Source: an uncultured Gemmatimonadales bacterium
GTDB lineage: Bacteria > Gemmatimonadota > Gemmatimonadetes > Gemmatimonadales > GWC2-71-9
Direction: 5' to 3'
Assembly (NCBI GenBank): GCA_963795085.1
Contig: CAWCFX010000006.1
Span: 512,001-576,000, forward strand
DNA: 64,000 nucleotides
A program made the translations under genes and the position numbers. This document shows positions 22,514-61,249 of the stretch, in pieces. The notes beneath the pieces are model-generated. The model worked only from the letters and a program-made list of their open reading frames with translations, was not told the origin of the DNA and did not search any database. Every line of letters starts with the position of its first letter. The first letter of the stretch is position 1.

Positions 22514-22530
22514 TTGGCCCGATTCTCGCC
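22514..22530 (+). promoter_or_regulatory. Possible internal sigma54 promoter
   Basis: TTGGCCCGATTCTCGCC (GG-N10-GC) in the only intergenic gap of the sulfatase-like array. Confidence 0.4.
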
Positions 22531-22623
22531 ATACCGGTCTGGCTCCCCCGGCTGGCCGGCCGGAGGCCCTTGAAACCGCTGTTGACGCGCCTAAACTGAT
22601 CCACTGCCCCGGAGGTCTGCCGC

Positions 22624-28119: not shown

Positions 28120-28126
<7 letters not shown>
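26261..28126 (+). CDS. cysN: Sulfate adenylyltransferase GTPase subunit with degenerate C-terminal APS-kinase-like domain
   Basis: [28 protein letters not shown]. The C-terminal kinase-like region reads [11 protein letters not shown] where the P-loop should be. Confidence 0.9.
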
Positions 28127-29445
<1,319 letters not shown>

Positions 29446-29513
29446 ACCCATCGCCCGACCGGCGAGTATCGCTGCCCGTTTGGCGGCTGAACCACTAAAT
29501 CAGAGGCGGAACG

Positions 29514-32297: not shown

Positions 32298-32325
32298 GAA
32301 ACGCCACCAGGCACCGATCGGATCT
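32298..32325 (-). promoter_or_regulatory. Putative ECF sigma promoter (target gene)
   Basis: Minus strand AGATCC-N16-CGTTTC; same spacing as the site upstream of the ECF sigma gene. Confidence 0.55.
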
Positions 32326-35120: not shown

Positions 35121-36476
35121 CTACCCCGCTCTACTGACGGGTTCCACGATCTTGAGCGCGGACAGTGATTCCGACTTGTCCGAGATGAACTCGTCATCGG
35201 TCTCCGGGTTGAGACCGGCCTCCCGCACCATCCGCCGCAGATTATCGGACCGGTTGGTAGTCGCCGCGGCCGTCAGGGCCAGGCCCAGCTCGTTGGGGGG
35301 CATGGACAGGATGAAGTTCCGGACCCCGGCGGCATCGATGCCTTCGCCGCCGAAATCGCCGAAGGCGAGCAGCCGGGAGAACCCGTAGTACTCGAGCAGC
35401 CGGCGGCGGAACATCTCCCGGAAAAACGGTTCCCGGGCCGGCTTTTTCATGGCCTGGTCGATGGCCCAGGTGCAGACCGTGGCGTTGTACATGCCGGTGG
35501 TCACCCCCTGGGAAAAGATCGGGTCCACGAACGAGGCGGCATCGCCGATGCAGAAATAGCCGTCGCCGACCACGTTTTCGGAGTAGTAGGAGTAGTCGGG
35601 CCTGAAGAAGAGCGAATCCGGCACGTAGGTGGCACCGGCCAGCAGGTCCCGCAGATAGGGAATGCCCGTCACGGTCCGGAGGAAGTACTCCTCCTGGGCC
35701 TTCTTGTTCATTCCCTTGGTGGCGTCGGTATTGATCACCAGCCCGATGCTGGTCGTGTCGCGCAGGATAATGTGCCACGCCCACCCGTCCTTGTAGGACA
35801 GGACAAAGGTGACCGGCCGGGCCTGGTAGACCTGGTTGGCCTCATACACCTCGCGGTCGGCGCCCAGGAAGCGGGCGTTCTTGAAATATCCCCACATGCC
35901 CAGGTACTTCCCGTCTGCGCTGACCCGGCGCCGGGCATTGGCCTGGCCCGCGATCACGCCGCTGATCCCGCTGGCGTCCACCACGTAGCGGGCGACGACA
36001 CTGCCCTCCGCGCTGCTCCCTCCGCGCCGATCCTCGTAATGCACCACGGGCGCGTCTCCCCGGCTCAGGTCCACCCGGCGCACCGTAACCTCCTCGTGGA
36101 CCTGGGCGCCCACCGACTCGGCGTGGCGAAGCAGGAGATGGTCGAAGCGGTCCCGCTCCACGTGCAGGGCGGCCCGCTGGACATACCCGAACCGGTCGAA
36201 CCGGATCTGCCGGATCTTGCCGTCCCACACCACGATCCCGCCCGCCTTGGTGACGAATCGCTCGGCATCCACTTTCGCGGTCACCCCCAGTGCTTCGGCG
36301 AACTTCCAGAAATGGGGGATCAGGCTCTCGCCCACCGTGGGGCGGGGATGCCGGGCCTTCTCCAGCAGCAGGGTCTCGTAGCCTGCCCGCGCCAGGAGGT
36401 TGGCCACGCTGCTGCCCGCTGGCCCGCCGCCGATCACGACGACATCGGCCCGGGATGGAATAGTGGTGGTCGTCAC
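35121..36476 (-). CDS. Flavin-dependent halogenase-like protein 2
   Basis: Start GTG 36476; GGGPAG, HPRPTVGESLIP, RFVTKAGG, HVERDRFDHLL, WAWHII, GDAASFVDPIFSQGV. Confidence 0.75.
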   Translation of the reverse strand: MTTTTIPSRADVVVIGGGPAGSSVANLLARAGYETLLLEKARHPRPTVGESLIPHFWKFAEALGVTAKVDAERFVTKAGGIVVWDGKIRQIRFDRFGYVQRAALHVERDRFDHLLLRHAESVGAQVHEEVTVRRVDLSRGDAPVVHYEDRRGGSSAEGSVVARYVVDASGISGVIAGQANARRRVSADGKYLGMWGYFKNARFLGADREVYEANQVYQARPVTFVLSYKDGWAWHIILRDTTSIGLVINTDATKGMNKKAQEEYFLRTVTGIPYLRDLLAGATYVPDSLFFRPDYSYYSENVVGDGYFCIGDAASFVDPIFSQGVTTGMYNATVCTWAIDQAMKKPAREPFFREMFRRRLLEYYGFSRLLAFGDFGGEGIDAAGVRNFILSMPPNELGLALTAAATTNRSDNLRRMVREAGLNPETDDEFISDKSESLSALKIVEPVSRAG

Positions 36477-41048: not shown

Positions 41049-42197
41049 ATGGATTTCTCCTGGTCGAGCGAACAGCTCGAGTTCAGGCAGACGGTCGTTG
41101 ATTTCGCGCGGAAAGCCCTCCAGGACGACCTGATCGCGCGGGACCGGTCGGCGACGTTTTCCCGCCCGCTCTGGAGCCGTTTGGGGGAGTTCGGCATCCT
41201 GGGCCTGCCCTTTCCCGAAGAATTCGGCGGGGCGGGCAGCGATATCCTGACCACCATCCTGGCGATGGAGGCCCTGGGCTACGGGTGCAAGGACAACGGC
41301 CTGCTCTTCGGCATCGCGGCCCAGATGTGGAGCGTCCAGATGCCGATCTTCAAGTTCGGCACCCCGGAAGCCCGGGCAAAGTACCTGCCCCGCCTCAATT
41401 CGGGAGAATGGATCGGGGCCCACGGGATGAGCGAGCCCGACAGCGGGTCGGACGCATTTGCGCTGCGGACCACCGCCGACCGGCGGGGCGACAGCTATGT
41501 CCTCAACGGCACCAAGACCTTCGTCAGCAACGGTCCCTCGGCGGATCTCTTCCTGGTATTTGCCACCCTGGACCGGACCAAGGGTTTCCTGGGCCTCACC
41601 GGCTTCCTGGTCGAGCGCACGACCCCCGGCCTCAAGGTGAGCAAGGAGATCGAGAAGATGGGGCTGCGCACCTCCCCGATGGCCGAGGTGATCATGGAGG
41701 ATTGCGTCATCCCGGTGGAGAACCGGATCGGGCGGGAGGGGCGCGGAGGGGCGGTCTTCAACGATTCCATGGAATGGGAGCGGGGCTGTATCCTCGCCAG
41801 CTACCTCGGGTCCATGGAACGCCAGCTGGAGTCCTGCGTGCGCCATTCCCAGGAGCGGAAACAGTTCGGCCAGGCGATCGGCCAGTTCCAGTCGGTGGCC
41901 AACAAGATGGTGGACATGAAAGTGCGGCTGGAGACGGCCCGCCTCATCCTGTACAAGGCGGCGTGGAGCAAACAGCAGCAGGGCAAGCATGCCGGTGAGG
42001 ACGCGGCGATTGCCAAGCTCTATCTCAGCGAAGCGTGGGTCAAATCCTGCCTCGATGCCGTCCAGATCCATGGAGGCTATGGATTCACAACCGAGTACGA
42101 GGTCGAGCGGGACCTCCGGGATTCCATCGGCGGTACCCTCTACTCGGGGACATCGGAGATCCAGCGGACCCTGATCGCGCGGCAGCTCGGGTTGTAG
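41049..42197 (+). CDS. Acyl-CoA dehydrogenase family, probable L-prolyl-S-carrier-protein dehydrogenase (PltE/RedW-like)
   Basis: ACAD motifs MSEPDSGSD, LNGTKTFVSNG, KMGLRTSP, RKQFGQAIGQFQ, QIHGGYG, TLYSGTSEIQR. MEALGYGCKDNGLLF and SMEWER resemble prolyl-PCP dehydrogenases; clustered with a carrier and a Pro-coded A domain. Confidence 0.8.
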   Translation: MDFSWSSEQLEFRQTVVDFARKALQDDLIARDRSATFSRPLWSRLGEFGILGLPFPEEFGGAGSDILTTILAMEALGYGCKDNGLLFGIAAQMWSVQMPIFKFGTPEARAKYLPRLNSGEWIGAHGMSEPDSGSDAFALRTTADRRGDSYVLNGTKTFVSNGPSADLFLVFATLDRTKGFLGLTGFLVERTTPGLKVSKEIEKMGLRTSPMAEVIMEDCVIPVENRIGREGRGGAVFNDSMEWERGCILASYLGSMERQLESCVRHSQERKQFGQAIGQFQSVANKMVDMKVRLETARLILYKAAWSKQQQGKHAGEDAAIAKLYLSEAWVKSCLDAVQIHGGYGFTTEYEVERDLRDSIGGTLYSGTSEIQRTLIARQLGL

Positions 42198-42201
42198 TGC
42201 G

Positions 42202-42219
42202 TGTTGGAGTATCGCAACA
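42202..42219. promoter_or_regulatory. Putative upstream activator sequence
   Basis: TGTTGGAGTATCGCAACA, about 95 nt upstream of the sigma54 motif at 42315. Confidence 0.55.
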
Positions 42220-42261
42220 TGCGGGAAACCCCGAGCCCTTGCATGACCTGGCTTTGGTTTC

Positions 42262-42288
42262 TCAAGTTATTGTCTCAAATCGCTTTAC
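42262..42288. promoter_or_regulatory. IHF-like site between the UAS and the sigma54 promoter
   Basis: TCAAGTTATTGTCTCAAATCGCTTTAC; the minus strand contains CAA-TAAC-TTG. Confidence 0.45.
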
Positions 42289-42314
42289 CTCAGATGCCGC
42301 CGGCTGTGGCGAAG

Positions 42315-42330
42315 TGGCACGGCGGTAGCA
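42315..42330 (+). promoter_or_regulatory. Sigma54 promoter for the MBOAT-MBOAT-carrier-A-domain operon
   Basis: TGGCACGGCGGTAGCA, one mismatch from TGGCACG-N4-TTGCW. Confidence 0.7.
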
Positions 42331-42397
42331 GGCAGGTAGAGCTTTCCGGCCCGCGGGCCGCCTCCTGGACGTCAATCGAATGCATCGGAGCAGCAAC

Positions 42398-44902
42398 ATG
42401 ACGGTGGGCAGTCTCACGGCCTCCCTGGGCGACCGGGTACGTACCAGCCCGGAATGGCTGGCCATCCTGCGGCTGGCGGGTTTCACCGTCCAGCTGGGGC
42501 TGGGCATCCTGGTGATCCGGGAATTCTCCCTGGAGGGTCCCACCTTCTACACCATGATCCTGCTGGCGGCAGTCGGGTTCTTCGTGAACGCCGTGCTGCC
42601 CCGGGCCTACCGGCAGGCCTGGTTCATCCTGGTCTCGCTGGTGGCGATCGGGATGGTGTTCGGGGTGGGAGACGGGCTCTGGCTGGTCGCGGTGGGCCTG
42701 GGTCTGATCGGCCTCTGCCACCTGCCGGTCAACTGGTGGCTCCGGGTGGCCATTATTCTGTCGGCGGCGGCGGTGCTGGCGTTCACCCGGATCGGCTGGC
42801 TGGGGGCGCCGTTTTCGATGGGCATCTGGCCCATCCTGGGCTCCATGTTCATGTTCCGGCTGATGGTGTACCTGCACCACATCAAGCACAATCCCAAGGT
42901 CACCGCGGGCCGGTCGCTGGCCTACTTCTTCATGTTGCCGAACATCTCGTTTCCCCTCTTTCCGGTGGTGGATTACAAGACCTTCGACTCGGTCTACTAC
43001 GACCAGGAGCCGAACGCCATCTACCAGGCCGGGCTCCGGTACATCGCCCGGGGCCTGCTGCACCTGGTCACCTACCGGTTCATCTATTACTACGTGGCGC
43101 GGGACCCGGCCGAGGTCACCAATCTCGGGGAGCTGCTGACCTACGTGGTCTCCACCTTCCTGATTTACGTCCGCGTCTCCGGCCAGTTCCATATCATCGT
43201 GGGGGTGCTCCACCTGTTCGGGTGGCGGATGCCCCCGGCCAACAACCTCTACTACCTGGCCACCAGCTTCACCGAGGTCTGGCGGCGGAACAACATCTAC
43301 TGGAAGGACTTCATGATGAAGCTGGCGTACTATCCCAGCTTCTTCAAACTCCGCGGCCGGGGCGGCAGCATCGCGCTCATCGGCGCCACGATCATGGTGT
43401 TCCTGCTGACGTGGCTGCTCCACTCCTACCAGTGGTTCTGGATCCGGGGCGAGTTTCCGCTGACCGCCACCGACGGCCTGTTCTGGGGCCTGATCGGGGG
43501 ATTCATGCTGGTGGAAATGCTGCGCGACACCCGCAAGGGCCCGGCTGCCCGGGTCCCGGTCCGCCGAGGGTGGAGCGCCAGCCGGGCCTTCCGGACGGTC
43601 GGGTTCTTTCTGCTGATGTCAACGCTCTGGGCGCTGTGGGACAGTCAGTCCATCGGTGATTTTATTTCGCTGTGGGCAGTGGCGACGCGATTCGACGGAG
43701 AGACCCTGCTCCGGATCGGCCTGCTCCTGGCGGCGGCCCTCGCCATTACCGGGTGGCCGTGGACGGTGCAAACCCTTCAGAAAGAGGAGGGACAGCAGCC
43801 GCTCTGGCGCCGGCAGGATGTCCAGACCGTCTTCGTGTGCACCGGCCTGCTGGCTATCGCCCAGCCCGGCGTTACCAATCTGGTGGCGCCCTCGGTCACC
43901 GAGTTCGCCCAGTCGCTGCGACAGACCAGGCTCAACGCCCGGGACGCCGCCTCCCAGCACCGGGGCTACTACGAGCAGCTCAACGTGGCGGCCGGCAACC
44001 TGGGCGGCGGCGAACTCCAGGCGGTGAACGAGGAGCGGCCCGCCGACTGGGTCCCGCTGACCGAAACCGCCGTGTACCGGGAACTGGAAGCGTCCTTCCT
44101 TGGCGGCGAGCTGGTGCCCGGATCGAGCACCGAGTTCAAGGGGGAGACCCTGAGCGTGAACCCGGCCGGCCTCCGGGACCGGGACTACGCGGTCCAGAAG
44201 CCGGCGGAGACCTACCGGATCGCCGTGATGGGGCCCTCCGACGTCATGGGCGCCGGCGTCGCCGATTCCCAGACGTTCGAGAATCTGCTGGAAGACCGGC
44301 TCAACCGGGAGCGGGTCGGCGGGCGGCGGTACGAGAGCATCAACTTCGGGGTGGTGTCCTTCAGCATCCTGCAGCAGATGCAGCTGCTGGAAGAGCGGGC
44401 GCTGCGGTACGACCCCGACATGGTGATCATCTCGTATCACGCGATCTCCGAAGCCCGGTTCGCCTTCCAGTACCTGGCCAACCGGGTGCGGTTCGGCCAG
44501 CCGGTGCCCCACCCCGAGCTGCGGGAGATCGCCGAGCGGGCCGGCGTGAAGCAGGGCATGGAGCAGCCGGACGCGTTCCGGAGGCTCAAGCCGTACGGCG
44601 ATGAACTGGTCCGGTGGTCGCTGGACCGGGTGGCCGGCATGGCGAAGGCCCGCGGCATCCAGCTGGTCCTGTTCATTCGGGACATGCCCGGCGAGATCTC
44701 CGACTCCACGCCCCCCGTCCTGGCATACGCGGACAGCCTGGGGTACGCCGTGGCCGATACCCGCGACGCCTTCGCCGGGCGGGATCCCAATACGCTCCTG
44801 CTGGCCGCCTGGGACAAGCATCCCAACGCACTGGGCCACCGGCTCACCGCCGAGCGCCTGTACGAAGAGCTGGTTGTGCGCCAATCCCTCCTCAAGCCCT
44901 GA
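42398..44902 (+). CDS. MBOAT (AlgI/DltB-like) fused to a periplasmic SGNH domain, copy 1
   Basis: Many TMs; FPLFPVVDY, ATSFTEVWRRNNIYWKDF...YYP, His in TWLLH. SGNH half: NPAGLRDRDY, IAVMGPS, INFGV, WDKHPNALGH. Confidence 0.85.
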   Translation: MTVGSLTASLGDRVRTSPEWLAILRLAGFTVQLGLGILVIREFSLEGPTFYTMILLAAVGFFVNAVLPRAYRQAWFILVSLVAIGMVFGVGDGLWLVAVGLGLIGLCHLPVNWWLRVAIILSAAAVLAFTRIGWLGAPFSMGIWPILGSMFMFRLMVYLHHIKHNPKVTAGRSLAYFFMLPNISFPLFPVVDYKTFDSVYYDQEPNAIYQAGLRYIARGLLHLVTYRFIYYYVARDPAEVTNLGELLTYVVSTFLIYVRVSGQFHIIVGVLHLFGWRMPPANNLYYLATSFTEVWRRNNIYWKDFMMKLAYYPSFFKLRGRGGSIALIGATIMVFLLTWLLHSYQWFWIRGEFPLTATDGLFWGLIGGFMLVEMLRDTRKGPAARVPVRRGWSASRAFRTVGFFLLMSTLWALWDSQSIGDFISLWAVATRFDGETLLRIGLLLAAALAITGWPWTVQTLQKEEGQQPLWRRQDVQTVFVCTGLLAIAQPGVTNLVAPSVTEFAQSLRQTRLNARDAASQHRGYYEQLNVAAGNLGGGELQAVNEERPADWVPLTETAVYRELEASFLGGELVPGSSTEFKGETLSVNPAGLRDRDYAVQKPAETYRIAVMGPSDVMGAGVADSQTFENLLEDRLNRERVGGRRYESINFGVVSFSILQQMQLLEERALRYDPDMVIISYHAISEARFAFQYLANRVRFGQPVPHPELREIAERAGVKQGMEQPDAFRRLKPYGDELVRWSLDRVAGMAKARGIQLVLFIRDMPGEISDSTPPVLAYADSLGYAVADTRDAFAGRDPNTLLLAAWDKHPNALGHRLTAERLYEELVVRQSLLKP

Positions 44903-44912
44903 AGGCGCGCCT

Positions 44913-47444
44913 ATGTCAGCCGGTTCGATAGCGATGGCGGAAAACTCCGGGGCAGCCCGGGTCGGGTGGGTGGCGGCCGGGCGGATGCTGGCCGCAGTGG
45001 TGCAGCTCGGCCTCATCGTGCTGGTGATTCGCCAGTTCGAGATTGAAGGGACCGGGTTCTACCGCCTCTCCCTGCTGGCGGCCGGAGGCTTCGCGGTCCA
45101 TGCCCTGCTGCCGCTCCGGCTGCGGCTGCCTTTCTTCCTCGCGCTATCCCTGGCCGGCATCCTGCTGGTGATGGGCATCGTCAACGGGCTCTGGATCCTC
45201 GGCCTGGGCGCGCTGCTCATCGTGCTGAGCCACATTCCGGTCCGCTTCAGCGTGCGGATCGCCATCGTGCTCGCCGCCGCCGTGGTGCTCGGCCTGTTCC
45301 GGTCCCAGCTGCTGCCGGGCGGGATCCCCGGGGCCGTCTGGCCGATCCTGGCCTCGATGTTCATGTTCCGGCTGGCCATCTACCTGTATGATCTCACCCA
45401 CGGGGTGGAGACCGGGCCGCCAGCCCGGGTGCTGGCGTACTTCTTCATGATCCCGAACGTCGCCTTTCCGCTGTTCCCCGTGGTGGATTACAAGACCTTC
45501 GCCCGCACCTATTACAATGACGAGGACTGGCGGATCTACCAGCGGGGCCTCAAGTGGATCGTGCGGGGCCTGACCCACCTGATCGCGTACCGCTTCGTCT
45601 ATCACTACATGGCCATGGATCTGGCCGCGGTCCGGACCGGTCCCGACGTGGCCCAGTACATCTTCAGCTCGTTCATGCTGTACCTGCGGGTCTCCGGCAT
45701 GTACCACCTCTCGATCGGCATGCTCCACCTGTTCGGGTTCCGGCTGCCGGAGACCAACCACTACTGGCTCTTCTGCCAGAGCTTCACCGATCTCTGGCGC
45801 CGGATGAACATCTATTTCAAGGACTTCATGATGAAGCTGGTGTATTATCCCAGCTACTTCAAAGTCCGCAAGCGGGGCATGCGGCAGGGAATCGCCCTGT
45901 CCCTCCTGATGGTATTCTTTGTGACCTGGGCCCTCCACGTGGTCCAGTGGTTCTGGCTCCGGGGCAGCCTCCTCCTCACCTGGCAGGACAGCCTGTTCTA
46001 CGTGGTACTGGGCGCCCTGGTGATCCGGCAGGCCATGAAGGACGCGGCCCCCGGCCGCAAGCGGGCACTGGACACTGGAGAGGCCCGGTGGAGCCCCCGC
46101 CGCGCAGTCAACGGGCTGCTCACGATGGGAATCCTGATGACGGCCTGGTCCTTCTGGACGGCCGACTCGGTGGACCAGTGGCTGGCAATGTTCCAGGGCA
46201 TGGGCGAATGGCCCCGGAACGGCACCCTCGTCCTGGCCAGCGTGCTGGCCGTGTACCTGGCCCTCGCCGGCCTTCCCTGGACGTCGCCCGAACTGGCTGA
46301 CCGGAAAGAGGGCACCCTGGTCGGCCCGGCCCTGCTCACGGTCGGCACCCTGGGCGGCCTGCTGTTCCTCGCCGAGCCGCGGGTGCACGAGCGGTTCACG
46401 CCGCGGGGGGTCGAACTGGTCCGATCGCTCAAGCAGAACAAGCTCAACCAGCGGGACCAGGCCGTGCTGCTGCGCGGGTACTATGAGAAAGTGGATAACA
46501 AGACCACACTGACCAGCCAGGTCTGGGAACTGGGACAGGGAACGCCCGAGGACATCCGGATCACCAGTACCCCGGCCTTCCGGGAACGCGCCGATTTCCT
46601 GGGCGGGGAGCTGGTGCCGTCGTCCCGGATCGTGTTCAAGAACGAGCAATTTGTCGCCAACCGCTGGGGCATGCACGACCAGGAGTACGAACGGGCCAAG
46701 CCGGCCGGCACCCACCGGACGGCGCTGCTGGGCCCTTCCGACGTGATGGGCCCGGGCGTGCTGGCGTCGGAAACCTTCGAGGCCCTGGCCGAGGCCCGTC
46801 TCAACCAGCACGGCGGTAAGTTCCAGCGCTACGAGATTCTCAATTTCGGGGTGGCCGCGTTCACCGTCCTCCAGCAGGCCGCCATGCTGGACGACCGGGG
46901 CCTCGGTTTCGACCCCGACCTGATCGTGATGACGTTCCACCCCGGGTCCGACCCGCCCACGACGCTGCGCTACCTGGTGGACGTCGTCCGGGCCGGCAGA
47001 CCGGTTCCCTACCCCGACCTCGCCGCTATCGTTCGGCGGGCCGGGATCGACAGCGGCATGACCGACGGCGTGGCCAAGCGGAAGACCTGGCCCCACATCC
47101 AGGAAATCATGCGCTGGAGCTTCCGGCATATTGCGGAAGCCGCGAAGTCCCGTAATATCCCGGTCGCGCTGCTGGTGACTGACGCCATCACCGAGCCATC
47201 GGCGCCGGACCAGCCGCTCATCCGCTACGCGGACAGCCTGGGCTTTACGATCCTGGACCTGCGCAGCGCGCACGTCGGGCACGAGCCCAGGACGGTAATC
47301 CTGGCCGAGAATGACCGGCATCCCAACAAGCTGGGCCACCGGCTCCTGGGCGAGGCGCTGTACCGCAAACTGATGGCACTCGGCGACACCCTGGGCCTGG
47401 GACTGGGCCCGCAACCATCGCAACTCAACCAGGAGGGGAAGTGA
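44913..47444 (+). CDS. MBOAT-SGNH fusion, copy 2
   Basis: Paralog of copy 1: FPLFPVVDY, QSFTDLWRRMNIYFKDF...YYP, TWALH; ALLGPS, LNFGV, NDRHPNKLGH. Start ATG 44913. Confidence 0.85.
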   Translation: MSAGSIAMAENSGAARVGWVAAGRMLAAVVQLGLIVLVIRQFEIEGTGFYRLSLLAAGGFAVHALLPLRLRLPFFLALSLAGILLVMGIVNGLWILGLGALLIVLSHIPVRFSVRIAIVLAAAVVLGLFRSQLLPGGIPGAVWPILASMFMFRLAIYLYDLTHGVETGPPARVLAYFFMIPNVAFPLFPVVDYKTFARTYYNDEDWRIYQRGLKWIVRGLTHLIAYRFVYHYMAMDLAAVRTGPDVAQYIFSSFMLYLRVSGMYHLSIGMLHLFGFRLPETNHYWLFCQSFTDLWRRMNIYFKDFMMKLVYYPSYFKVRKRGMRQGIALSLLMVFFVTWALHVVQWFWLRGSLLLTWQDSLFYVVLGALVIRQAMKDAAPGRKRALDTGEARWSPRRAVNGLLTMGILMTAWSFWTADSVDQWLAMFQGMGEWPRNGTLVLASVLAVYLALAGLPWTSPELADRKEGTLVGPALLTVGTLGGLLFLAEPRVHERFTPRGVELVRSLKQNKLNQRDQAVLLRGYYEKVDNKTTLTSQVWELGQGTPEDIRITSTPAFRERADFLGGELVPSSRIVFKNEQFVANRWGMHDQEYERAKPAGTHRTALLGPSDVMGPGVLASETFEALAEARLNQHGGKFQRYEILNFGVAAFTVLQQAAMLDDRGLGFDPDLIVMTFHPGSDPPTTLRYLVDVVRAGRPVPYPDLAAIVRRAGIDSGMTDGVAKRKTWPHIQEIMRWSFRHIAEAAKSRNIPVALLVTDAITEPSAPDQPLIRYADSLGFTILDLRSAHVGHEPRTVILAENDRHPNKLGHRLLGEALYRKLMALGDTLGLGLGPQPSQLNQEGK

Positions 47445-47704
47445 CCAACGAAGAGATCATCCGGACGGTGAAGGAGTACATACTCCAGACCTTCCTTCCG
47501 GGCGAGGATCCCAAGGCGCTGACCGAAAGCACCCAGCTCATCACGGGCGGCGTGCTGGATTCCCTGGCCACGCTCGAGCTGGTGTCCTTCCTGGAACAAA
47601 AGTACGGCATCGAACTGCAGGCCCACGAGGTGGATGCCGCCAACCTCGGCACCCTGACCGCCATCGCCGGGCTGGTGCAGACCAAGGTGGGCGCCGGGAA
47701 GTGA
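47441..47704 (+). CDS. Stand-alone acyl/peptidyl carrier protein
   Basis: 87 aa, acidic, with phosphopantetheine site GVLDSL; translationally coupled on both sides. Confidence 0.92.
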   Translation: MTNEEIIRTVKEYILQTFLPGEDPKALTESTQLITGGVLDSLATLELVSFLEQKYGIELQAHEVDAANLGTLTAIAGLVQTKVGAGK

Positions 47705-49263
47705 GCGCCGCCACGCTGCACGCCCAGCTCGACGCCACGGTTCGGCGGTTCCCCGCGCGAACCGCGGTGGAGGATCCCGGCAAGGGGCAGTTGACCTATG
47801 CTGAACTGGGTGAGCTGTCGGACCGGCTCCGGGACCGGCTGGCGCTCCTCGGCGTGGAGCCGGGGGACCGGGTCGGACTGTACATGGCCAAGTCGCTGGA
47901 CGCGATCGTCACCATTTTCGGCGCCCTCAAGACGGGGGCGGCCTACGTGCCCGTGGATCCGGGCGCCCCGCCGGCCCGCTGCGCCTACATTCTCAACAAC
48001 TGCTCGGTCCGGGTCATCGTCACGGAGCGGCGGCTGAGCCAGGCTCTCACCGAGGAACTCCAGAAACTGGGAAGCGTCCCGCCCCTCCTGCTGCTGGACG
48101 ACGCGGCCGAGGCAAACCTCCCCGTTGCCGCGATGCTGGACCGGGAAGCCGGGACCCGCCCCGCGCCGGCGGCGGCCACCAGGGACCCCGGCCCCGACGG
48201 GCTGGCCTACATCCTGTACACTTCCGGATCCACCGGCAAACCCAAGGGCGTGATGCTCACGCACCGCTGCGCGGTGAGTTATGTCGACTGGTGTTCGGAC
48301 GTGTTCCAGCCCACGGAGGCAGACCGGTTCTCTTCGCACGCGCCGCTGCACTTCGACCTGTCCATCCTGGACCTCTACGTCCCCCTCAAGCACGGGGCCA
48401 CGCTGGTGCTGATCGGCGAGGAACTGGGCAAGGACCCGCTCAACCTCGCACCGTTGATCGCCGAGAAGCGAATCACCGTCTGGTATTCCACGCCCTCGAT
48501 CCTGAGCCTGCTGGCCCAGTACGGCAAGCTGTCCCGCTACGATTACTCGGCGCTGCGCTTTGTGTTCTTCGCCGGCGAAGTCTTCCCGGTGCCGCAGCTC
48601 CGCGCCCTCAAGGCACTGTGGCCGCATCCCCGGTACTTCAACCTGTACGGGCCCACCGAGACCAACGTGTGCACCTACTACGAGGTGCCCGCCGAGATCC
48701 CGGCCGGCCGCACCGAGCCGTTTCCGATCGGGAAGACGTGCGAGCACCTGGCCTGCCTGGTGATCGACCAGGACGGGAGCGTGGTGCCGAAAGGCGAGGA
48801 AGGCGAGCTGGTGGTGTGGGGACCCGGAGTCATGACCGGCTACTGGAACCTGGCGGAGCAGAACGCCGCCGCCTTCATCGAGATCGGCGGCAAGCGCTGG
48901 TACCACACGGGGGATCTGGTGGTCGAGGAGCCCAGCGGCGACTACATCTTCCACGGCCGCCGGGACCGGATGGTCAAGCGGCGGGGCTACCGGGTGGAAC
49001 TGGGCGAAATCGAAGCGGGCCTCGCCACCCATCCCCAGGCGAAAGAGGTGGCGGTGGTGGCGCTGCCGGACAAGGATGCCGGCGTCAAGATCCGGGCGTT
49101 TCTCTCGATCAAGGACGGCGTCAAGCCCAGCATCATCGAGATGAAGTCGTTCTCGATGGACAAACTGCCCAAGTACATGGTGCCCGATACCTTCTCGTTC
49201 CTCGAGGCGCTGCCCCGGACCTCGACCGACAAGATCGACTACCAGACGCTCAAGACTCTCTGA
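47701..49263 (+). CDS. Stand-alone adenylation enzyme, probable L-proline--carrier protein ligase (PltF/RedM-like)
   Basis: A3 YTSGSTGKPKG, A4 FDLS, A5 NLYGPTE, A7 YHTGD, A10 PRTSTDKID. Specificity code extracted by hand: D-L-L-Y-F-A-L-V-C-K. Confidence 0.85.
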   Translation: MSAATLHAQLDATVRRFPARTAVEDPGKGQLTYAELGELSDRLRDRLALLGVEPGDRVGLYMAKSLDAIVTIFGALKTGAAYVPVDPGAPPARCAYILNNCSVRVIVTERRLSQALTEELQKLGSVPPLLLLDDAAEANLPVAAMLDREAGTRPAPAAATRDPGPDGLAYILYTSGSTGKPKGVMLTHRCAVSYVDWCSDVFQPTEADRFSSHAPLHFDLSILDLYVPLKHGATLVLIGEELGKDPLNLAPLIAEKRITVWYSTPSILSLLAQYGKLSRYDYSALRFVFFAGEVFPVPQLRALKALWPHPRYFNLYGPTETNVCTYYEVPAEIPAGRTEPFPIGKTCEHLACLVIDQDGSVVPKGEEGELVVWGPGVMTGYWNLAEQNAAAFIEIGGKRWYHTGDLVVEEPSGDYIFHGRRDRMVKRRGYRVELGEIEAGLATHPQAKEVAVVALPDKDAGVKIRAFLSIKDGVKPSIIEMKSFSMDKLPKYMVPDTFSFLEALPRTSTDKIDYQTLKTL

Positions 49264-49282: not shown

Positions 49283-50257
49283 CTACCGGTCGATCCACCG
49301 CTCTTCGCCCGCCAGCGCCCTCGGCCGTATCCAGAAATACCAGAGCCGGGGCGCCTTTTTCATCCGGTCCTTCAGGTCTTCCGCCACCTCGTGCACCCGG
49401 CCCCGAACCCGCAACGCGGCGCCCGCCGCCGGCTCGGCGGGCTGGTACCCGAACTGCTGCATCAGCGGTCCCGCCGTCCATTCCACCAGGCGCACCTGTT
49501 CCGGCGTCAACTGGTTCTTCCAGGATCCCAGCCGGTCCCGGCTCAACGATCCCTGGGCCCGCTCGAACCAGGGCCGGTCGGCCCGGGCCGGCTGCTTCAC
49601 CTCCAGCATGGCCGGGCTGAAAGTCTCGCCGACGAAGCGGCAGACCTCAGCCAGGCGCTGCTCCGGCTGCTCGACCAGGTCCTCGTAGCGAATCCGCATG
49701 AAGCGGGGATCGTCCCGGGAGGCCTCCGCGGCCGCCGTGAGGCTGGCCCAGAGCCGGCCGTTGGCCGCGGCGCTCTTCCGGCCCCACGGCACGTTGAAGA
49801 GCGAGGCCGTCACGTCCCGGGGGTCGCGAAGCAGGTGGATGACCCGGGCGCCCGGGTACCAGGCGAGCAGGTCGGCCGTATTCCAGGCGTGGTGGGGGGT
49901 CTTCTCGCCCGGCCGCACCTTGCCCATCGATTCGGCGTAGAACGCAAGGATCGCCGCGAAAAACGCGGGGTAGCTGGTGCCCTGGGCCATCAACCGGTCC
50001 GCCAGGGCGGGCAGGTCGATCTTCAGCCGCTGCATCCGGGAAGTTGCGGTGTAGCTCGCGACGAGCCGCTTGCGGTTCTCCGGATCGGCCAGGTCGCCGA
50101 ACGCCCGCCGCCGCAGGTGGACGTAATAGAAAAAATAGGTCTCGTCGCAGAGCCCTATGCGGGGGTGCCGGTTGAGCATCGCCCGGAGCAGCGTCGTCCC
50201 GCTCCGGGGAGCGCCCACGATGAAAATGGGCTGGAACGCGGCCAGGTCCATGGTCAC
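49283..50257 (-). CDS. PAPS-dependent sulfotransferase (Sulfotransfer_3-like)
   Basis: 5'-PSB loop IVGAPRSGTTLL, GEKTP, 3'-PB motif RDPRDVTAS, RYEDLV; no signal peptide. Confidence 0.9.
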   Translation of the reverse strand: MTMDLAAFQPIFIVGAPRSGTTLLRAMLNRHPRIGLCDETYFFYYVHLRRRAFGDLADPENRKRLVASYTATSRMQRLKIDLPALADRLMAQGTSYPAFFAAILAFYAESMGKVRPGEKTPHHAWNTADLLAWYPGARVIHLLRDPRDVTASLFNVPWGRKSAAANGRLWASLTAAAEASRDDPRFMRIRYEDLVEQPEQRLAEVCRFVGETFSPAMLEVKQPARADRPWFERAQGSLSRDRLGSWKNQLTPEQVRLVEWTAGPLMQQFGYQPAEPAAGAALRVRGRVHEVAEDLKDRMKKAPRLWYFWIRPRALAGEERWIDR

Positions 50258-51162
50258 GGTTTCCCGGTGACGTAGCCGATCATCTCGCCCAGGCTCCAGG
50301 TGGCCAGCAGCAGGAATACCGCCGGGCTGGCGGCCAGGAATTGGCGGGCGGTGCGCTTTTTCCGGGCCTGGTGCGCGGCCAGCCGGTAGAACAGCACCAG
50401 CGGCAGAAGCGGCGCCGTCGCCGCAAGCAGCAGGCGCCTGCCGATCCCGATCTCCCGCGCGCGGGTGTACGCGAACAGCCGGCCCCAGCCGATGCGCTCT
50501 CCCACCAGCCGGCCCACGGTCAGGTCGTCCCGCATCTGGTCCACGGCGAACTGGTCCGAGAGATAGAGAACCTCGCCGGCCCGGGCCAGCGCCCAGTGCA
50601 CGGTGGTCTCATGATAGCGCTCCTTCCAGAGGTCCCGGGTCTGCTCCAGCGCCCCGCGCTTGTAGCCGATGTTGACGTCGGTGACATACTCCCGGGGACC
50701 CGCGGCGTAGGGAAGCTGGTAGCGGCCGAAATCGCAGAAGTACACCGCCCAGTTGAGAAGCCGGTCGCGGCCGTTCTCGACCGCTCCGCCAATCACCGCA
50801 TGAGGCAGCCGCTCGTGGGCCTCCACCAGTGCTTTGGCCCACGCGGGCCGGGGCACCCCGCGGTCCTCCACGATGGCGACGACCTGGCCCCGCGCCCGGG
50901 CCAGCCCGGCGGAACGCCGGCGGTCGAACAGTTCATGCTGGCCCGCGGGACCCTGCCGGGATCGCCGGGTATCCACCTGGCCGATCGGCAGGAAGTGAAA
51001 GGTGGGAAACTTTGCGACGATGGGCCCCATGCCCAGGACGCTCTCGTCGTACGGCACGATGACTTCGAGGCTGGGGCCGCCCTCCTGCCGGGCCAGGGCA
51101 GCCAGGCAGCGCTCGAGCGTATCTCCGCCATCGACCACGGTGACGACCACTGAAAGAAGCAT
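50254..51162 (-). CDS. Family 2 glycosyltransferase-like protein with C-terminal membrane helices
   Basis: LSVVVTVV...LERCLAAL...EVIV, GLARARGQVVAIVED, IGGAVEN, NIGYKR. Confidence 0.7.
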   Translation of the reverse strand: MLLSVVVTVVDGGDTLERCLAALARQEGGPSLEVIVPYDESVLGMGPIVAKFPTFHFLPIGQVDTRRSRQGPAGQHELFDRRRSAGLARARGQVVAIVEDRGVPRPAWAKALVEAHERLPHAVIGGAVENGRDRLLNWAVYFCDFGRYQLPYAAGPREYVTDVNIGYKRGALEQTRDLWKERYHETTVHWALARAGEVLYLSDQFAVDQMRDDLTVGRLVGERIGWGRLFAYTRAREIGIGRRLLLAATAPLLPLVLFYRLAAHQARKKRTARQFLAASPAVFLLLATWSLGEMIGYVTGKP

Positions 51163-51244
51163 CAGGAAATCTTCGTGACGGGGAAATCAAGGATCAAGGA
51201 GCCGTCCACTCTGCACTCTGCACGTTGAACTCTACCCTCTGCCC

Positions 51245-52846
51245 TCACACCATCCCCGCCACCCGAACCGCGTTCGCCATCAGCGTGTAGGTCAGGTTCT
51301 TGGCCGGCAGAAACGGAAAGGTCGCGCCGTCGGCCAGGATCAGGTTCTCGAAGTCATGGCTCCGGCAGGCCGGCGAGGCGGTGAGCGGTTTCGCCGAGCG
51401 GGACATGGGGATGGTGCCCGCGTAATGAATGCTGGAGCCCAGGGGGAGAACCTTGGTCATGCCCGGCGGCACGACTGCCCCCAGCCGCCAGAGCGCCCGC
51501 TTCACCGTCTTGAGCGCGCGGCCGACCCGCTCGGCATCGTCCGGCGCCGCCGAGTAGCGGATAACCATCTTCGAGCGGCCTCCCGGTTCCGGCCGGATGG
51601 AGAGCGTGTTGGCTTCGCGCCGCCGGTCGTGCAGCCACACGTTGGCGACGCCGAGGGCGGCATGGGTGGAGCGAAAGATGCCGAGGGCGGCACGCATGTC
51701 CACCGGCATGCTGTGCACGATCGGGTGAATGGACGCGGCCTTCAGGGCGGTCATCTGGCCGTGGACGTACTCGTCGGGCCGTTCGCCTTCGATCCCCAGC
51801 GCCAGCTGGTGGAACTGGTAACTGTGGGTGGAGACCGGCCGCCCCAGCATGCGCAGGGTAAGAAACGGGATCATCAACTGCCGGTTGTCCATCAGCCCCG
51901 TCAGCTCGGCCACCTGGCCGGTGGCCTGGTACAGGGAATCGAGCAGGATGCGGGACGAGCAGAGGGTGCCCGCTGCCAGGACGTAGTGATCGGCGGCGAG
52001 CGGGACCGGGTCGCCCCCGTCCACCGGCCGCGCCACTACTCCGGACACCTTCCCCGCGGTACTGGTGAAATGCTCGACCCACAGTCCGGGGAGGTAGCGG
52101 AACCGGGGATGGCCCCGCAACTGGCGCAGGGTCATCCCGGGCGCGTAGAGCGATTCCCTCGGGCAGCCCCAGAGACAGCGGCCGAGATAGTCACACGCCT
52201 TGCGGCCGTGGAGGTCGCGGCTCAGCACCGCGACCCGGGAGCGTCCGAGGTGAAACCGGAGGCCCTGCTGCAGGCGGCGTCGCTTTCGCCCGTAGCGGTC
52301 CAGCAGGAGTCGGGTGTGCTCGTCGGGGTCCAGCGCCGGCTGGTACTCGGGCGACATCGGCGTGAAGCGGGCCAGGTCATCGTCGGCCGCGCTGATCCCG
52401 ATCCGGCGGTCCACCTCCCGGTAGTGCGGCTCCAGGTCCGCGTAGCTCAGGGGGAAGTCCGCCAGCTCGGCATCGTTCAGGGCATAGACGCCGCCGGTCC
52501 ACGCCTCGGCGAGCCCGCCGGCGGCAAAAGAGGTCACCGGCTCGAAGCCGGTGGTATCGGAGGCGAAGGGGGCGGGGCTTCGGAACACGTAGGACTTACT
52601 GGGGGGAAAGCCATAGAACTTGGCCACCGGGCTGGGATACACCACCGCCTCGCCGCGGGTGCCAAGGAAGTATCCGGCGGGATCGTCGAGCGAGTCTTTC
52701 AGCGCGTCGAAATCGGCGTCGGGCGCGATGGGATCGGGGCGGGGGTGCCCCACGTCCACCATCGTCACCTCGTGGCCCCGCTCCAGCGCGGTCGCCGCGA
52801 AGTGTACGCCCGTGGCCCCGGAACCGACGATCAGCACGCTGCTCAC
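51245..52846 (-). CDS. GMC-family FAD-dependent oxidoreductase
   Basis: IVGSGATG, GGLAEAWTGG, CDYLGRCLWGCP, VLAAGTLCS, IHYAGT, ADGATFP...NLTYTLMANA. Confidence 0.85.
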   Translation of the reverse strand: MSSVLIVGSGATGVHFAATALERGHEVTMVDVGHPRPDPIAPDADFDALKDSLDDPAGYFLGTRGEAVVYPSPVAKFYGFPPSKSYVFRSPAPFASDTTGFEPVTSFAAGGLAEAWTGGVYALNDAELADFPLSYADLEPHYREVDRRIGISAADDDLARFTPMSPEYQPALDPDEHTRLLLDRYGRKRRRLQQGLRFHLGRSRVAVLSRDLHGRKACDYLGRCLWGCPRESLYAPGMTLRQLRGHPRFRYLPGLWVEHFTSTAGKVSGVVARPVDGGDPVPLAADHYVLAAGTLCSSRILLDSLYQATGQVAELTGLMDNRQLMIPFLTLRMLGRPVSTHSYQFHQLALGIEGERPDEYVHGQMTALKAASIHPIVHSMPVDMRAALGIFRSTHAALGVANVWLHDRRREANTLSIRPEPGGRSKMVIRYSAAPDDAERVGRALKTVKRALWRLGAVVPPGMTKVLPLGSSIHYAGTIPMSRSAKPLTASPACRSHDFENLILADGATFPFLPAKNLTYTLMANAVRVAGMV

Positions 52847-53298
52847 GGCACCGCCTGGCCGGGCGCCCGGCGGCCGCGGAGAAACGGATGCATCGGTCCG
52901 AACAGCAGCATCCCGGCGACCAGCGCGGCCCCGAACGCGAGAATTCCTCCGGCAATGGCCAGCAGGGCTTCCGCCAGCCCGCGTCCGCCCCGGGTCAGGG
53001 AGCGATGGGTGCCGGGCGCATTCTCGAGCACGGCGAGCAGGAGGGTCAGCTTCTGGCGCAGCACGCCGTGAGGCCGGAAGAAGCGCGCGTAGGCATCCGC
53101 CATCCGGGCCCGGCGGGGGCCCTTCGAAGCGACCAGGGTGAGCATGATATCCAGGGCATCGTATCCCGACCGGCGGTAGGGAATGGCGTGATGCCCTTCC
53201 CGGTAGCGGCTTCGCACGTACTCGCTCGGATCGTGGCCGGTGAGATAGCGGGAGAAGACCCGGGACTCGATGTCGAGGCGGTCAGCGGGCGTGGACAA
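52843..53298 (-). CDS. Hypothetical protein with a C-terminal TM helix
   Basis: Fills the operon gap and overlaps both neighbours; hydrophobic C-terminus; no recognised motif. Confidence 0.6.
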   Translation of the reverse strand: MSTPADRLDIESRVFSRYLTGHDPSEYVRSRYREGHHAIPYRRSGYDALDIMLTLVASKGPRRARMADAYARFFRPHGVLRQKLTLLLAVLENAPGTHRSLTRGGRGLAEALLAIAGGILAFGAALVAGMLLFGPMHPFLRGRRAPGQAVP

Positions 53299-54205
53299 GC
53301 GACTTCAACAGGGTATCGAGAGGCGGCATACCAGGCCGCAACGCGAGCGCGAGGTCATTGGGCGAGGCCACGCCGTCCTGGGTGAACGGTACCAGCTGCC
53401 CCGGGCCCACCGGGAATCGGGATCCCAGTAGCCGGCCCGCGGCCACGAGCGAGAGGCGGAGGGGTGCCATCGGGACCTTCACCAGCGGAGTCTGGCTCTT
53501 TCCGTGGGCCGCCCGGATCCGCCGGATCAACTGTTCGAAGCTGAGCTCTTCGGGGCCGCCCAACTCGAGGATCTCGCCGGAGAACCGGCTCCGCTCCACC
53601 AGCATGGCCATGCCGCGGACGACGTCCTGCACGTCCACCGGCTGGACGCGGGCGCGGCCGTTCCCCAGCACGACCGGCAGGGGAAGCGTGGCCATCGCCC
53701 GGAGCCGCTGCCAGACCGGACTGCCGGGACCCAGGACGATCGTGGGGCGCAGGATGGTGTAATCCATCCGGCCGGCCCGCACGAGTTCCTCCGCCTGCCG
53801 CTTGGAACGGCCGTAGGGATATCCGGAAAGATCGGGATACCCGGCCGCAATGGAGCTGATGTACAGGATGCGATTGACTCCCTGCCGTTCGCACTCCCCG
53901 AGCAGGCGGCCGGTCGCGTCAACGTTGATGCGGGTGAGATCGGCGGGTGAAGCATTTCCGGTGGCGGCGGCCAGATGGACCACGATGTCGGCCTGGGCCA
54001 GCAAATCGGCGTAGGAGGCCGGGGAAGCCAGGTCGCCTTCTCGGTGGCTCCAGCCGGGAAGTCCGGCCGGCCCGGCGGGCGGAGTGCGGCTGAGACAGGT
54101 GACCCGCTCGAAGCCGCGGGCCCGCAACTCGGCCAGGAAGCGCCGGCCGATGAACCCGCTTCCGCCGGTCACGAAGATGGAGGCGGAGAGGGCGGAGGGT
54201 GCCAT
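53282..54205 (-). CDS. NAD-dependent epimerase/dehydratase (extended SDR); start uncertain
   Basis: VTGGSGFIG, VVHLAA, YISS, YGRSK (YxxxK), ILRPTIVLG. Confidence 0.88.
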   Translation of the reverse strand: MAPSALSASIFVTGGSGFIGRRFLAELRARGFERVTCLSRTPPAGPAGLPGWSHREGDLASPASYADLLAQADIVVHLAAATGNASPADLTRINVDATGRLLGECERQGVNRILYISSIAAGYPDLSGYPYGRSKRQAEELVRAGRMDYTILRPTIVLGPGSPVWQRLRAMATLPLPVVLGNGRARVQPVDVQDVVRGMAMLVERSRFSGEILELGGPEELSFEQLIRRIRAAHGKSQTPLVKVPMAPLRLSLVAAGRLLGSRFPVGPGQLVPFTQDGVASPNDLALALRPGMPPLDTLLKSLVHAR

Positions 54206-54240
54206 CGCGCCGGGCGCCGGGTCGAGCGCGGGGGGGGCGG

Positions 54241-55047: not shown

Positions 55048-55093
55048 TCTCTCCCCCGGGTGATGGTAGGCTGCCCCCCGACCGATGCAGGGA

Positions 55094-55109
55094 CGCAACA
55101 GTTCGGCCT
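55094..55109 (-). promoter_or_regulatory. Possible internal sigma54 promoter
   Basis: Minus strand AGGCCGAACTGTTGCG (GG-N10-GC with TTGC), with an IHF-like site about 42 nt upstream. Confidence 0.4.
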
Positions 55110-55150
55110 CCTGCGGGACGCCGGGGATGACCCCGACGCGGCACAAACTG

Positions 55151-61233: not shown

Positions 61234-61249
61234 GCCGCGACATGACCTT

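Follow-up and report, generated by a model that had tools for sequence, protein, structure and literature searches.

What purpose a proline-activating module of the natural-product type would serve when it is encoded directly beside two membrane acyltransferases is the question raised by a five-gene locus at 41049-49263, with all genes in one direction, in a 64,000-nucleotide stretch of DNA (the window) from an uncultured Gemmatimonadales bacterium (assembly GCA_963795085.1, contig CAWCFX010000006.1, positions 512,001 to 576,000). The answer proposed here, to which a probability of roughly 0.6 is assigned, is a second, Dlt-like carrier-dependent MBOAT-SGNH pathway that would transfer an acyl group made from proline (either pyrrolyl or dehydroprolyl, and in this organism probably halogenated) onto an envelope glycan. 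The general scheme of carrier-dependent acylation across the envelope is held with somewhat more assurance than this full reading. The alternatives weighed below concern different parts of the model, and their odds are not meant to add up to one. An earlier note on this DNA had recognized an acyl-CoA dehydrogenase (ACAD), a carrier and an adenylation (A) domain around two MBOAT-SGNH fusions; these genes are found at the coordinates given here, and fold models back the fusion label.

The first gene (41049..42197, plus strand) encodes a 382-residue FAD-dependent dehydrogenase of the ACAD fold (by Pfam), whose NCBIfam and Protein Data Bank (PDB) matches point to the prolyl-carrier type. It is followed by paralog 1 of the MBOAT-SGNH fusion (42380..44902, plus strand; 840 residues), identified by its AlphaFold2 model and structure matches, whose start may lie at 42398 since the database copy has 834 residues. 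After a 10-nt gap comes paralog 2 (44913..47444, plus strand), contained in an open reading frame (ORF) of 44601-47444 with a likely ATG at 44913. The free-standing carrier protein (47441..47704, plus strand; 87 residues, with a PP-binding match) contains ITGGVLDSLATLE, and phosphopantetheine is likely attached at Ser41 in its LDSL motif. The last gene (47701..49263, plus strand; 520 residues) encodes a free-standing A enzyme with a proline-type code. The translational coupling that had been proposed for the last three genes can be read directly in the sequence, as GTGA stop/start overlaps join paralog 2 to the carrier at 47441-47444, with AGGAGG 5' of the overlap, and the carrier to the A enzyme at 47701-47704.

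The A enzyme bears on the identity of the substrate. It comprises the Pfam domains AMP-binding and AMP-binding_C and scores 378.8 bits against TIGR01733 (cut-off 317.4). When the pocket region is compared with PDB sequences, PltF (6o6e) leads with 178 bits and the next match reaches 132; for the whole protein the module 2 A domain of LgrA ranks first and PltF second, with 335 bits for PltF and about 194-226 for DltA. With the NCBIfam DltA models the enzyme reaches 284 bits (cut-off 476) and 273 bits (cut-off 560), and it is not a DltA equivalog. The code DLLYFALVCK extracted by hand in the earlier note is reproduced, and alignment to 6o6e confirms the PltF code given there at nine positions (DLLYLALVC), of which eight are equal in the window enzyme; the numbering of the code positions is presumably that of PheA. 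Among the related loci described below and the window, 66 A-domain ORFs were clustered and seven of under 430 residues were dropped. The remaining 59 include 33 with DLLYLALVCK, 12 with DLLYFALVCK, eight near variants (differing in one residue or, in one ORF, gapped) and six unrelated second ligases elsewhere in their loci. The PltF-type proline code is common to most of these ORFs and strongly supports the prediction that the A enzyme loads L-proline on the carrier.

The carrier itself is less easily placed in a named family. Its Pfam PP-binding match is marginal (21.1 bits, cut-off 20.8), and its best NCBIfam match is the planctomycete family 'ACP_for_OlsHI', at 98.7 bits under a cut-off of 130. 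With 24.5 bits against a DltC cut-off of 68 it is not a DltC equivalog, and in NCBIfam it stands nearer to acyl carrier proteins (ACPs) than to the named families of peptidyl carrier proteins (PCPs). Ser41 is invariant in 39 orthologs. The carrier is also unusually conserved between phyla, with 39-91% identity over the 39 sequences and an invariant 'PGE' stretch beside the invariant Ser41. A connection to the OlsH/OlsI ornithine-lipid system, raised by the best family match, was dropped, as the available text of PMC12493201 describes OlsI as an alpha/beta hydrolase and a system in which no MBOAT is involved.

The dehydrogenase contains all three Pfam ACAD domains, and its best matches are enzymes that act on a carrier-bound prolyl group. 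In NCBIfam the highest scores belong to PigA (454.9 bits) and RedW (421.9), with the next ACAD family at 310.7. In the PDB, 4irn, the 'Prolyl-ACP dehydrogenase' AnaB, matches over the full length with 469 bits, ahead of 6cxt (340 bits), which we take to be the pyrrole-pathway enzyme Bmp3, of 5zw0 (330 bits), an L-prolyl-carrier dehydrogenase presumably of PigA type, and of generic ACADs at 297 bits or less. The top matches in both libraries, prolyl-carrier dehydrogenases throughout, exceed generic ACADs by about 145-170 bits, and 'SMEWERG' and 'YSGTSEIQ' are common to the window enzyme and AnaB. The earlier grouping of this protein with the prolyl-carrier enzymes agrees with all five of these top matches.

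How far the prolyl group would be oxidized is another matter. The scores for PigA and RedW lie below the respective equivalog cut-offs (500 and 650), and AnaB, the nearest relative, is a two-electron enzyme that gives (S)-pyrroline-5-carboxyl-AnaD according to the available part of a review (PMC3252866). The same machine could accordingly carry a dehydroprolyl group (pyrroline-5-carboxyl or its enamine tautomer), or prolyl where the dehydrogenase is missing, with the halogenases described below acting on the enamine or enol form or on another substrate. The gap between AnaB (469 bits) and the structures 6cxt and 5zw0 favours this account, as does the end of the AnaB reaction at the pyrroline stage in the accessible portion of that review. 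There is, on the other side, no established sequence marker that separates two-electron from four-electron enzymes of this class, and the halogenases bear on the choice as well; taken together, the dehydroprolyl or prolyl alternative is considered rather unlikely. The earlier proposal of a pyrrole-2-carbonyl group consequently stands in its proline-type code and enzyme class, and the pyrrole itself is left weaker by the proximity to AnaB and the two missed cut-offs. That the transferred group is a pyrrole in this genome is regarded as an even call.

An AlphaFold2 model of paralog 1 was built on 52 homologs, the alignment of which also served to assess conservation, and it reaches a mean predicted local distance difference test score (pLDDT) of 87.1 and a predicted template modelling score (pTM) of 0.85. 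The model consists of an MBOAT core at about 50-430, two further transmembrane (TM) helices, a GYYE motif at 529-532 and an SGNH domain at about 560-840. Residues 53-430 have DltB (8jem_A) as their top solved structure, with a Z of 21.3 and a root-mean-square deviation of 4.2 over 359 of 417 residues, followed by the other MBOATs PORCN (Z 18.7), HHAT (18.2), LPCAT3 (18.0) and MBOAT7 (17.5). Foldseek returns HHAT and DltB with E values of about 5e-7. On this predicted fold, the fusion family is a divergent MBOAT branch that is recognized by structure and not by the Pfam model.

Behind the core, helices 440-457 and 479-499 lead into a low-pLDDT stretch that carries the motif LNxRD...[RK]GYYExL[DN], in which G529, Y530 and Y531 are invariant in 52/52 sequences, E532 is present in 51/52, and position 534 is L, V or I. 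The residues N305, H348, Y530, Y531, S620, N655, D812 and H814 are likewise found in all 52. Of these, S620 (GPS, block I), N655 (block III), and D812 and H814 (block V) supply the blocks of an SGNH enzyme. Paralog 2, 43% identical to paralog 1 (E 3.5e-211), keeps every invariant residue, as it is itself a row of the alignment. According to the available text of PMC12148441 (JBC 2025), PatA-type MBOATs have two extra TM helices with an acyl-shuttle tyrosine in an FXYXXF motif, and in PatA/PatB the acyl group is first taken up by this tyrosine and then moves to the SGNH partner's serine. By analogy, a tyrosine of GYYE may be the acyl shuttle of the fusions.

Modelled alone, the SGNH domain attains a pLDDT of 94.9. 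Its structure matches are led by CgnD (Z 21.1) and EstA (15.5), with other esterases at 13-15.5, SsfX3 at 12.7 and PatB at 11.9; TesA is also among the nearest solved structures, and CgnD, EstA and TesA are hydrolases. Since CgnD is nearest and PatB reaches only Z 11.9, the comparison fits a transferase and a hydrolase alike. DltD, AlgJ and AlgX are absent among the best 50 structure matches listed, which is no sign of a difference. CgnD was also considered as a guide to the acceptor and dropped: the part of PMC10070186 available describes it as a slow, esterase-like leader protease of a pathway for a peptide made by the ribosome and modified after translation (RiPP), and a RiPP leader protease is uninformative on this point.

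Several properties of the fusions weigh against their assignment as acyl-translocating enzymes. Neither paralog has a Pfam MBOAT match at E<=0.01, and Pfam and NCBIfam assign nothing to the N-terminal 500 residues of both. At the C-termini GDSL_2 is sub-threshold (22.6 and 16.9 bits, cut-off 32.9). A search of the genome with PF03062 matches only another gene, on contig C1, and hhalign relates the fusions to this sole canonical Pfam MBOAT of the genome with a probability of just 54% (E 1.3e-4). The weak alignment puts H348 on the canonical 'WHG' histidine and pairs 'FWRR-N305' with the canonical 'FWARW-H', such that Asn305 replaces the first conserved histidine ('RWH') of bacterial MBOATs. GYYExL differs from the published FXYXXF and is internal instead of C-terminal. 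The nearest solved SGNH structure is, as noted, a hydrolase. Finally, the outward orientation of the SGNH domain is suggested by analogy with PatA and DltX.

Docking of the carrier on the membrane domain was assessed by co-folding. Fusion residues 20-560 with the carrier scored 0.57, and the best of three controls scored 0.00, which lends weak support to an interaction. The mark used is reached by 116/157 solved complexes and by 2/215 mismatches, and 18 of the 157 solved complexes, together with both mismatches, lie at 0.60 or under. At least 84% of the contacts are common to the runs, and the pLDDT of the partner is 81 or more. Since a DltB-DltC complex has already been solved, the result may reflect likeness only.

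The hydrolase-like SGNH domain raises the possibility that the locus belongs to a small-molecule pathway, in which a (halo)pyrrole carboxylate would be released or exported and the SGNH domain would be a thioesterase or esterase. The proximity to CgnD, EstA and TesA agrees with this, and thiotemplated halopyrroles are classic secondary metabolites. The genome was searched for a partner pathway over 3.89 Mb (93.4% complete). The condensation (C) domain PF00668 has 0 matches. No ketosynthase (KS) of the polyketide synthase (PKS) type was found, PF00109 being strong only in frames of 423 and 461 residues, read as FabF/FabB-sized, with four weak matches besides. The A enzyme of the window is the sole A domain above the cut-off. 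The lack of PKS, condensation and KS genes that had been reported for the window thus extends to the genome, and no PKS or nonribosomal peptide synthetase (NRPS) elsewhere is available to use this carrier. The genome is equally devoid of another tailoring partner, the surroundings are those of glycan biosynthesis, and an SGNH domain fused behind an MBOAT core, two TM helices and an invariant tyrosine motif would be needless for hydrolysis in the cytoplasm. The small-molecule account is consequently very improbable.

Evidence that the genes form a functional unit comes from their distribution. In species-representative genomes, the search patterns hit 573 stretches, of which 503 code for a relative of the fusion; the best 80 gave 79 distinct loci, in which genes were called by tblastn (high-scoring segment pair of at least half of the query, E<=1e-5, with at least 45% identity for the A enzyme and 40% for the dehydrogenase). 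Clustered at 90%, the fusion family as a whole numbers at least 2837 members and, clustered at 50%, 1591 representatives (E<=1e-30), labelled mostly 'hypothetical protein' by NCBI and 'DltB (MBOAT superfamily)' by JGI. A carrier is encoded in 69 of the 79 loci, a proline-type A enzyme in 55, a dehydrogenase in 57 and all three in 51; among the 28 incomplete loci, many lie on truncated contigs. In 50 of the 51 complete cassettes the four genes (dehydrogenase, fusion, carrier and A enzyme) lie on one strand, in six gene orders and over a median of 5.5 kb. Its repetition in 51/79 loci sets the arrangement far apart from chance, and chance adjacency of unrelated genes was rejected on the 50 same-strand cassettes in their six orders.

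The loci come from about a dozen phyla, namely Gemmatimonadota, Acidobacteriota, Pseudomonadota, Myxococcota, Planctomycetota, Verrucomicrobiota, Chloroflexota, Spirochaetota, Calditrichota, Rhodothermota, Binatota, Methylomirabilota and others. One of them, L049, is a full cassette in the culturable Steroidobacter flavus CGMCC 1.10759. Within the window's own phylum the spread is patchy, with the fusion family in 13 of 201 sampled genomes, that of the window included. A FastTree phylogeny of 82 fusion proteins intermixes phyla. It places both window paralogs in a single clade of ten rows, with a Shimodaira-Hasegawa (SH)-like support of 92, that consists solely of halogenase-bearing Gemmatimonadota loci, and the duplication is therefore lineage-specific. 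Two loci, L006 and L069, also have two fusion genes; L006 has two carriers, and the copies in L069 are each other's closest relatives. The survey of gene neighbourhoods proposed in the earlier note hence recovers its combination of genes repeatedly, and its notion of a single rewired starter pathway gives way to that of a widespread mobile cassette.

Variation among the loci suggests which components form the core. In L022, L028, L034, L063 and L073 the fusion occurs with neither a proline-type A enzyme nor a dehydrogenase despite full flanks, and the carrier is kept in all but L073. In L057 two other AMP-binding enzymes stand in place of the proline-type A enzyme and the dehydrogenase, and the carrier is again kept. 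The neighbours in L028 are GT4 glycosyltransferases (GTs), a UDP-glucose dehydrogenase, methyltransferases and a sulfotransferase. The fusion and the carrier look like the core of the system, with an exchangeable module for acyl supply. L051 and L053 have a proline-type A enzyme and a carrier beside the fusion, with no dehydrogenase within several kb; these may be plain prolyl-transferring variants, and they count in favour of a cargo other than a pyrrole.

Two flavin-dependent halogenases are encoded 4-7 kb upstream of the cassette, halogenase 1 at 33734..35071 (minus strand; Pfam Trp_halogenase 127.3 bits) and halogenase 2 at 35121..36473 (minus strand; 85.9 bits; GTG start at 36473 inferred), and a genome search found them to be the only genes of the Trp_halogenase family. 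Halogenase 1 matches the PDB entries 8zop (221 bits), CndH (204), ChlB4 (183), PltA (181) and Bmp2/Mpy16 (about 166). The motifs GxGxxG, a catalytic Lys, WxWxIP and FxxPxxSxG are presumed here to be the signature of flavin halogenases. Halogenase 1 carries GGGPGG, K73, GWVWYIP and FIDPIFSAG, and halogenase 2 carries GWAWHII (Pro to Ile), FVDPIFSQG and the other two motifs. Orthologs of halogenase 1 with 71-75% identity adjoin the ACAD gene in L001, L002 and L004, and a more distant halogenase (about 31% identical) adjoins it in L010. In the window the halogenases are separated from the dehydrogenase by an ABC transporter and an Alginate_exp porin. This block (36491-40488), in which the Alginate_exp-family porin is accompanied by the binding protein, permease and ATPase of an NMT1-type ABC transporter, looks inserted, since a halogenase gene directly adjoins the dehydrogenase gene in these four loci. 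An ECF sigma factor and an RskA-type anti-sigma factor lie directly beside halogenase 1 (32325-33661) and may regulate the locus.

Whether the halogenases speak for a pyrrole depends on several observations. They occur in only 9 of the 79 loci, are no nearer to PltA than to CndH or ChlB4, and could act on another substrate. The best NCBIfam match of both is CmlS, which for halogenase 2 scores 182 bits and far under the cut-off. CmlS acts on a non-aromatic carbon, in keeping with a dehydroprolyl group. On the fusion tree the association with halogenases requires four changes against a mean of 12.3 in shuffled data, and 0 of 500 shuffles was as low; judged from this tree, halogenases have apparently been gained at least four times. 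Such repeated recruitment fits an electron-rich pyrrole. In all characterized cases of which we are aware, moreover, carrier-dependent halogenases of this clade take aromatic or pyrrole substrates. The presence of two halogenases favours pyrrole in this lineage.

The nature of the acceptor is approached through the gene neighbourhood. The entire window is an exosortase-type exopolysaccharide (EPS) island with sulfation genes. Its EPS core (2-13394) encodes a sigma-54 response regulator (2-901, minus strand), a Wzc-like GNVR/P-loop protein (1206-3713), a response regulator-GGDEF protein (3763-4881, minus strand), an SLBB/Wza-like protein (5197-6171), a Bac_transf priming enzyme (6168-6929), Exosortase_EpsH (6934-7830), a GT2 (8493-9860, minus strand), a GT4 (9662-10945, minus strand), a Big_2/SBBP protein (10436-12718) and a HAD hydrolase. 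It is followed at 13658-26264 by six tandem membrane 'Sulfatase'-family paralogs of about 600-700 residues (EptA/LtaS/arylsulfatase-like), with a PMT_2 protein (18860-20728) among them, and at 26261-30395 by a full set of genes for the supply of 3'-phosphoadenosine-5'-phosphosulfate (PAPS), comprising a CysN-adenosine-5'-phosphosulfate (APS) kinase fusion, a CysQ-APS kinase fusion and a CysD-like PAPS_reduct protein. Downstream of the cassette, all on the minus strand and assigned by Pfam, are a sulfotransferase (49283-50257), a GT2 (50254-51162), a GMC oxidoreductase (51245-52846), an epimerase (53282-54526) and a second GT2 (54241-55146). The PAPS genes and the sulfotransferase, on either side of the cassette, suggest a sulfated product.

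The downstream genes recur with the cassette in relatives. L002 retains all except the last GT2, L010 all except the sulfotransferase, and L003 the sulfotransferase, the first GT2 and the GMC gene, and the short contig of L001 reaches the sulfotransferase only. The glycan genes at 49283..55146 are therefore likely linked to the cassette. Farther downstream, on the minus strand at 57904-62920, an amine oxidase, LPG_synthase_TM, a GT2 and a PMT_2 (ArnT-like) protein resemble a set for lipid-linked periplasmic glycosylation.

Across the 79 loci, clustering of all ORFs found nothing further that is widely conserved beyond the cassette genes. The next commonest are GT4 (21 loci), epimerase (12), GT2 (11), carbamoyltransferase (10), the membrane sulfatase family (9), a sigma-54 activator (9), asparagine synthase (8) and Bac_transf (8). 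The profiles used for these counts derive from ORF clusters of the same loci. A GT was detected in 32 of the 79 loci and in 20 of the 35 that are at least 20 kb long, compared with 228 of 1886 same-sized windows (12.1%) of the window's own genome, a contrast that is inflated because the GT profiles were built from the same loci. An exosortase lies within the flanks (10 kb at most) of a single locus, a count of little reach given that the window exosortase is 34 kb from its cassette.

These neighbourhood data also admit an acceptor of another kind, such as lipid A or the lipopolysaccharide core, a membrane lipid, peptidoglycan or a surface protein. As a self-contained unit, the cassette occurs in many different neighbourhoods, no gene for acceptor synthesis travels with it among the 79 loci, and no GT was detected in 47 of these, within flanks of 10 kb at most, or in 15 of the 35 long ones. 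Its patchy and horizontally mixed spread, seen in the 201 sampled genomes and in the tree, would suit a universal acceptor, and membrane 'Sulfatase'-family (EptA/LtaS-like) genes are present in nine of the loci and in six copies in the window. Set against this are the glycopolymer acceptors of all bacterial MBOAT-SGNH pairs covered in the available text of PMC12148441, the excess of GTs in the long loci over the control windows, and the position of the cassette inside an exosortase EPS island, with the sulfotransferase, GT2, GMC and epimerase genes syntenic in relatives. An acceptor other than a polysaccharide is accordingly thought unlikely. The surface glycan postulated in the earlier note is supported in its glycan-biosynthesis setting, and the acceptor itself is suggested by analogy and neighbourhood; a glycan is considered probable.

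The preferred reading, acylation of an envelope glycan from a carrier, can be laid out as a sequence of steps. The A enzyme would adenylate L-proline and load it on Ser41 of the carrier, where the AnaB/PigA-type flavoprotein would oxidize the tethered prolyl group to pyrroline-5-carboxyl (two electrons) or pyrrole-2-carboxyl (four electrons). In this lineage the pyrrole would be favoured, and the two halogenases may chlorinate or brominate the carrier-bound group. If DltB/DltX and PatA are a guide, the acyl-carrier would dock on the MBOAT domain from the cytoplasmic side. There His348 with Asn305 would hand the acyl group to the GYYE tyrosine, carried by a flexible linker at the outer face, as similar relays suggest. 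Ser620 of the SGNH domain, assisted by Asn655, Asp812 and His814, could then take over the acyl group and esterify an extracytoplasmic acceptor, for which the likeliest candidate is a sugar hydroxyl on the sulfated, exosortase-type exopolysaccharide of the surrounding genes. A more specific version, in which a mobile four-gene cassette esterifies envelope polysaccharides with pyrrole-2-carboxylate and in this organism produces a sulfated, halopyrrole-decorated exopolysaccharide, is put forward only tentatively. We know of no halopyrrole-decorated polysaccharide in polymer chemistry.

Compared with known systems, the cassette combines a Dlt-like donor logic, a PatA-like membrane layout and a natural-product-style module for proline supply. 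The resemblance to Dlt, anticipated by the earlier note, resides in the carrier, A domain, MBOAT and SGNH, with DltB as the nearest solved structure of the fusion core and all four genes together in 51/79 loci. In Dlt, and by prediction in the cassette, an amino acid is adenylated onto a small free-standing carrier, the MBOAT takes the acyl group and the SGNH protein delivers it outside. The cassette differs from Dlt in its code for proline instead of D-Ala, in its on-carrier dehydrogenase and, in this organism, halogenases, in having MBOAT and SGNH in one chain, and in the GYYE motif of its linker, which stands where Dlt has DltX. The host phyla of the cassette are diderm and are not known to have teichoic acids.

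As far as the available sections of PMC12148441 go, Dlt is the sole MBOAT-SGNH system known to take its acyl group from a carrier protein, and the non-Dlt pathways use an acyl-CoA donor, no carrier protein, and separate MBOAT and SGNH proteins. PatA/PatB, with AlgI/AlgJ/AlgX and WssH/WssI, is similar to the cassette in following the MBOAT core by two extra TM helices and a tyrosine motif, and different in its use of acetyl-CoA and separate proteins in place of a carrier thioester and fused domains. Differences extend to the motif itself (internal GYYExL versus FXYXXF) and to the SGNH domain, to which PatB is only a distant match. OatA-type AT3-SGNH proteins, likewise described in the accessible part of PMC12148441, also consist of one chain in which a membrane domain for acyl translocation is linked to an SGNH domain outside the cytoplasm, and they use a tyrosine intermediate, as the cassette would; the membrane domain of the cassette has an MBOAT fold, however, and its putative donor is a carrier protein rather than acetyl-CoA.

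The supply module corresponds to those of PltF/PltL/PltE with PltA, RedM/O/W, PigI/G/A, Bmp and AnaC/AnaD/AnaB in its proline A enzyme, carrier and ACAD-fold dehydrogenase, in a code that equals PltF's or comes very near to it, and in adjacent flavin halogenases. It departs from these thiotemplated pyrrole modules in lacking a KS, a C domain and a PKS, with the product presumably going to a membrane acyltransferase, in a dehydrogenase below the equivalog cut-offs and in a carrier nearer to ACPs than to PCPs. Exosortase A-associated acyl-CoA ligase/ACP genes (TIGR03098) are a further point of comparison, as this family ranks second among the NCBIfam matches of the A enzyme and the window holds an exosortase EPS locus. 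With 289 bits, far below the cut-off of 592, the A enzyme belongs to a different family, and the TIGR03098 neighbourhood presumably has an ACP and neither a dehydrogenase nor an MBOAT-SGNH fusion. The earlier note knew of no described system with this architecture, and in a search of full-text literature, covering few subscription papers, neither a proline/dehydrogenase-fed MBOAT system nor an MBOAT-SGNH fusion was found described.

The acylation of envelope polymers by MBOAT-SGNH systems affects antibiotic resistance, phage and immune recognition, and the properties of biofilms. If the reading is correct, the cassette would join Dlt as a second MBOAT pathway that depends on a carrier, the first of them to be built as an MBOAT-SGNH fusion, and the fusion would offer a single-chain model of the acyl-tyrosine relay. 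Thiotemplate chemistry, in the form of proline oxidation and halogenation, would then serve the decoration of cell surfaces, and heteroaromatic or imine esters, possibly organohalogens, would join the polysaccharide modifications of soil bacteria.

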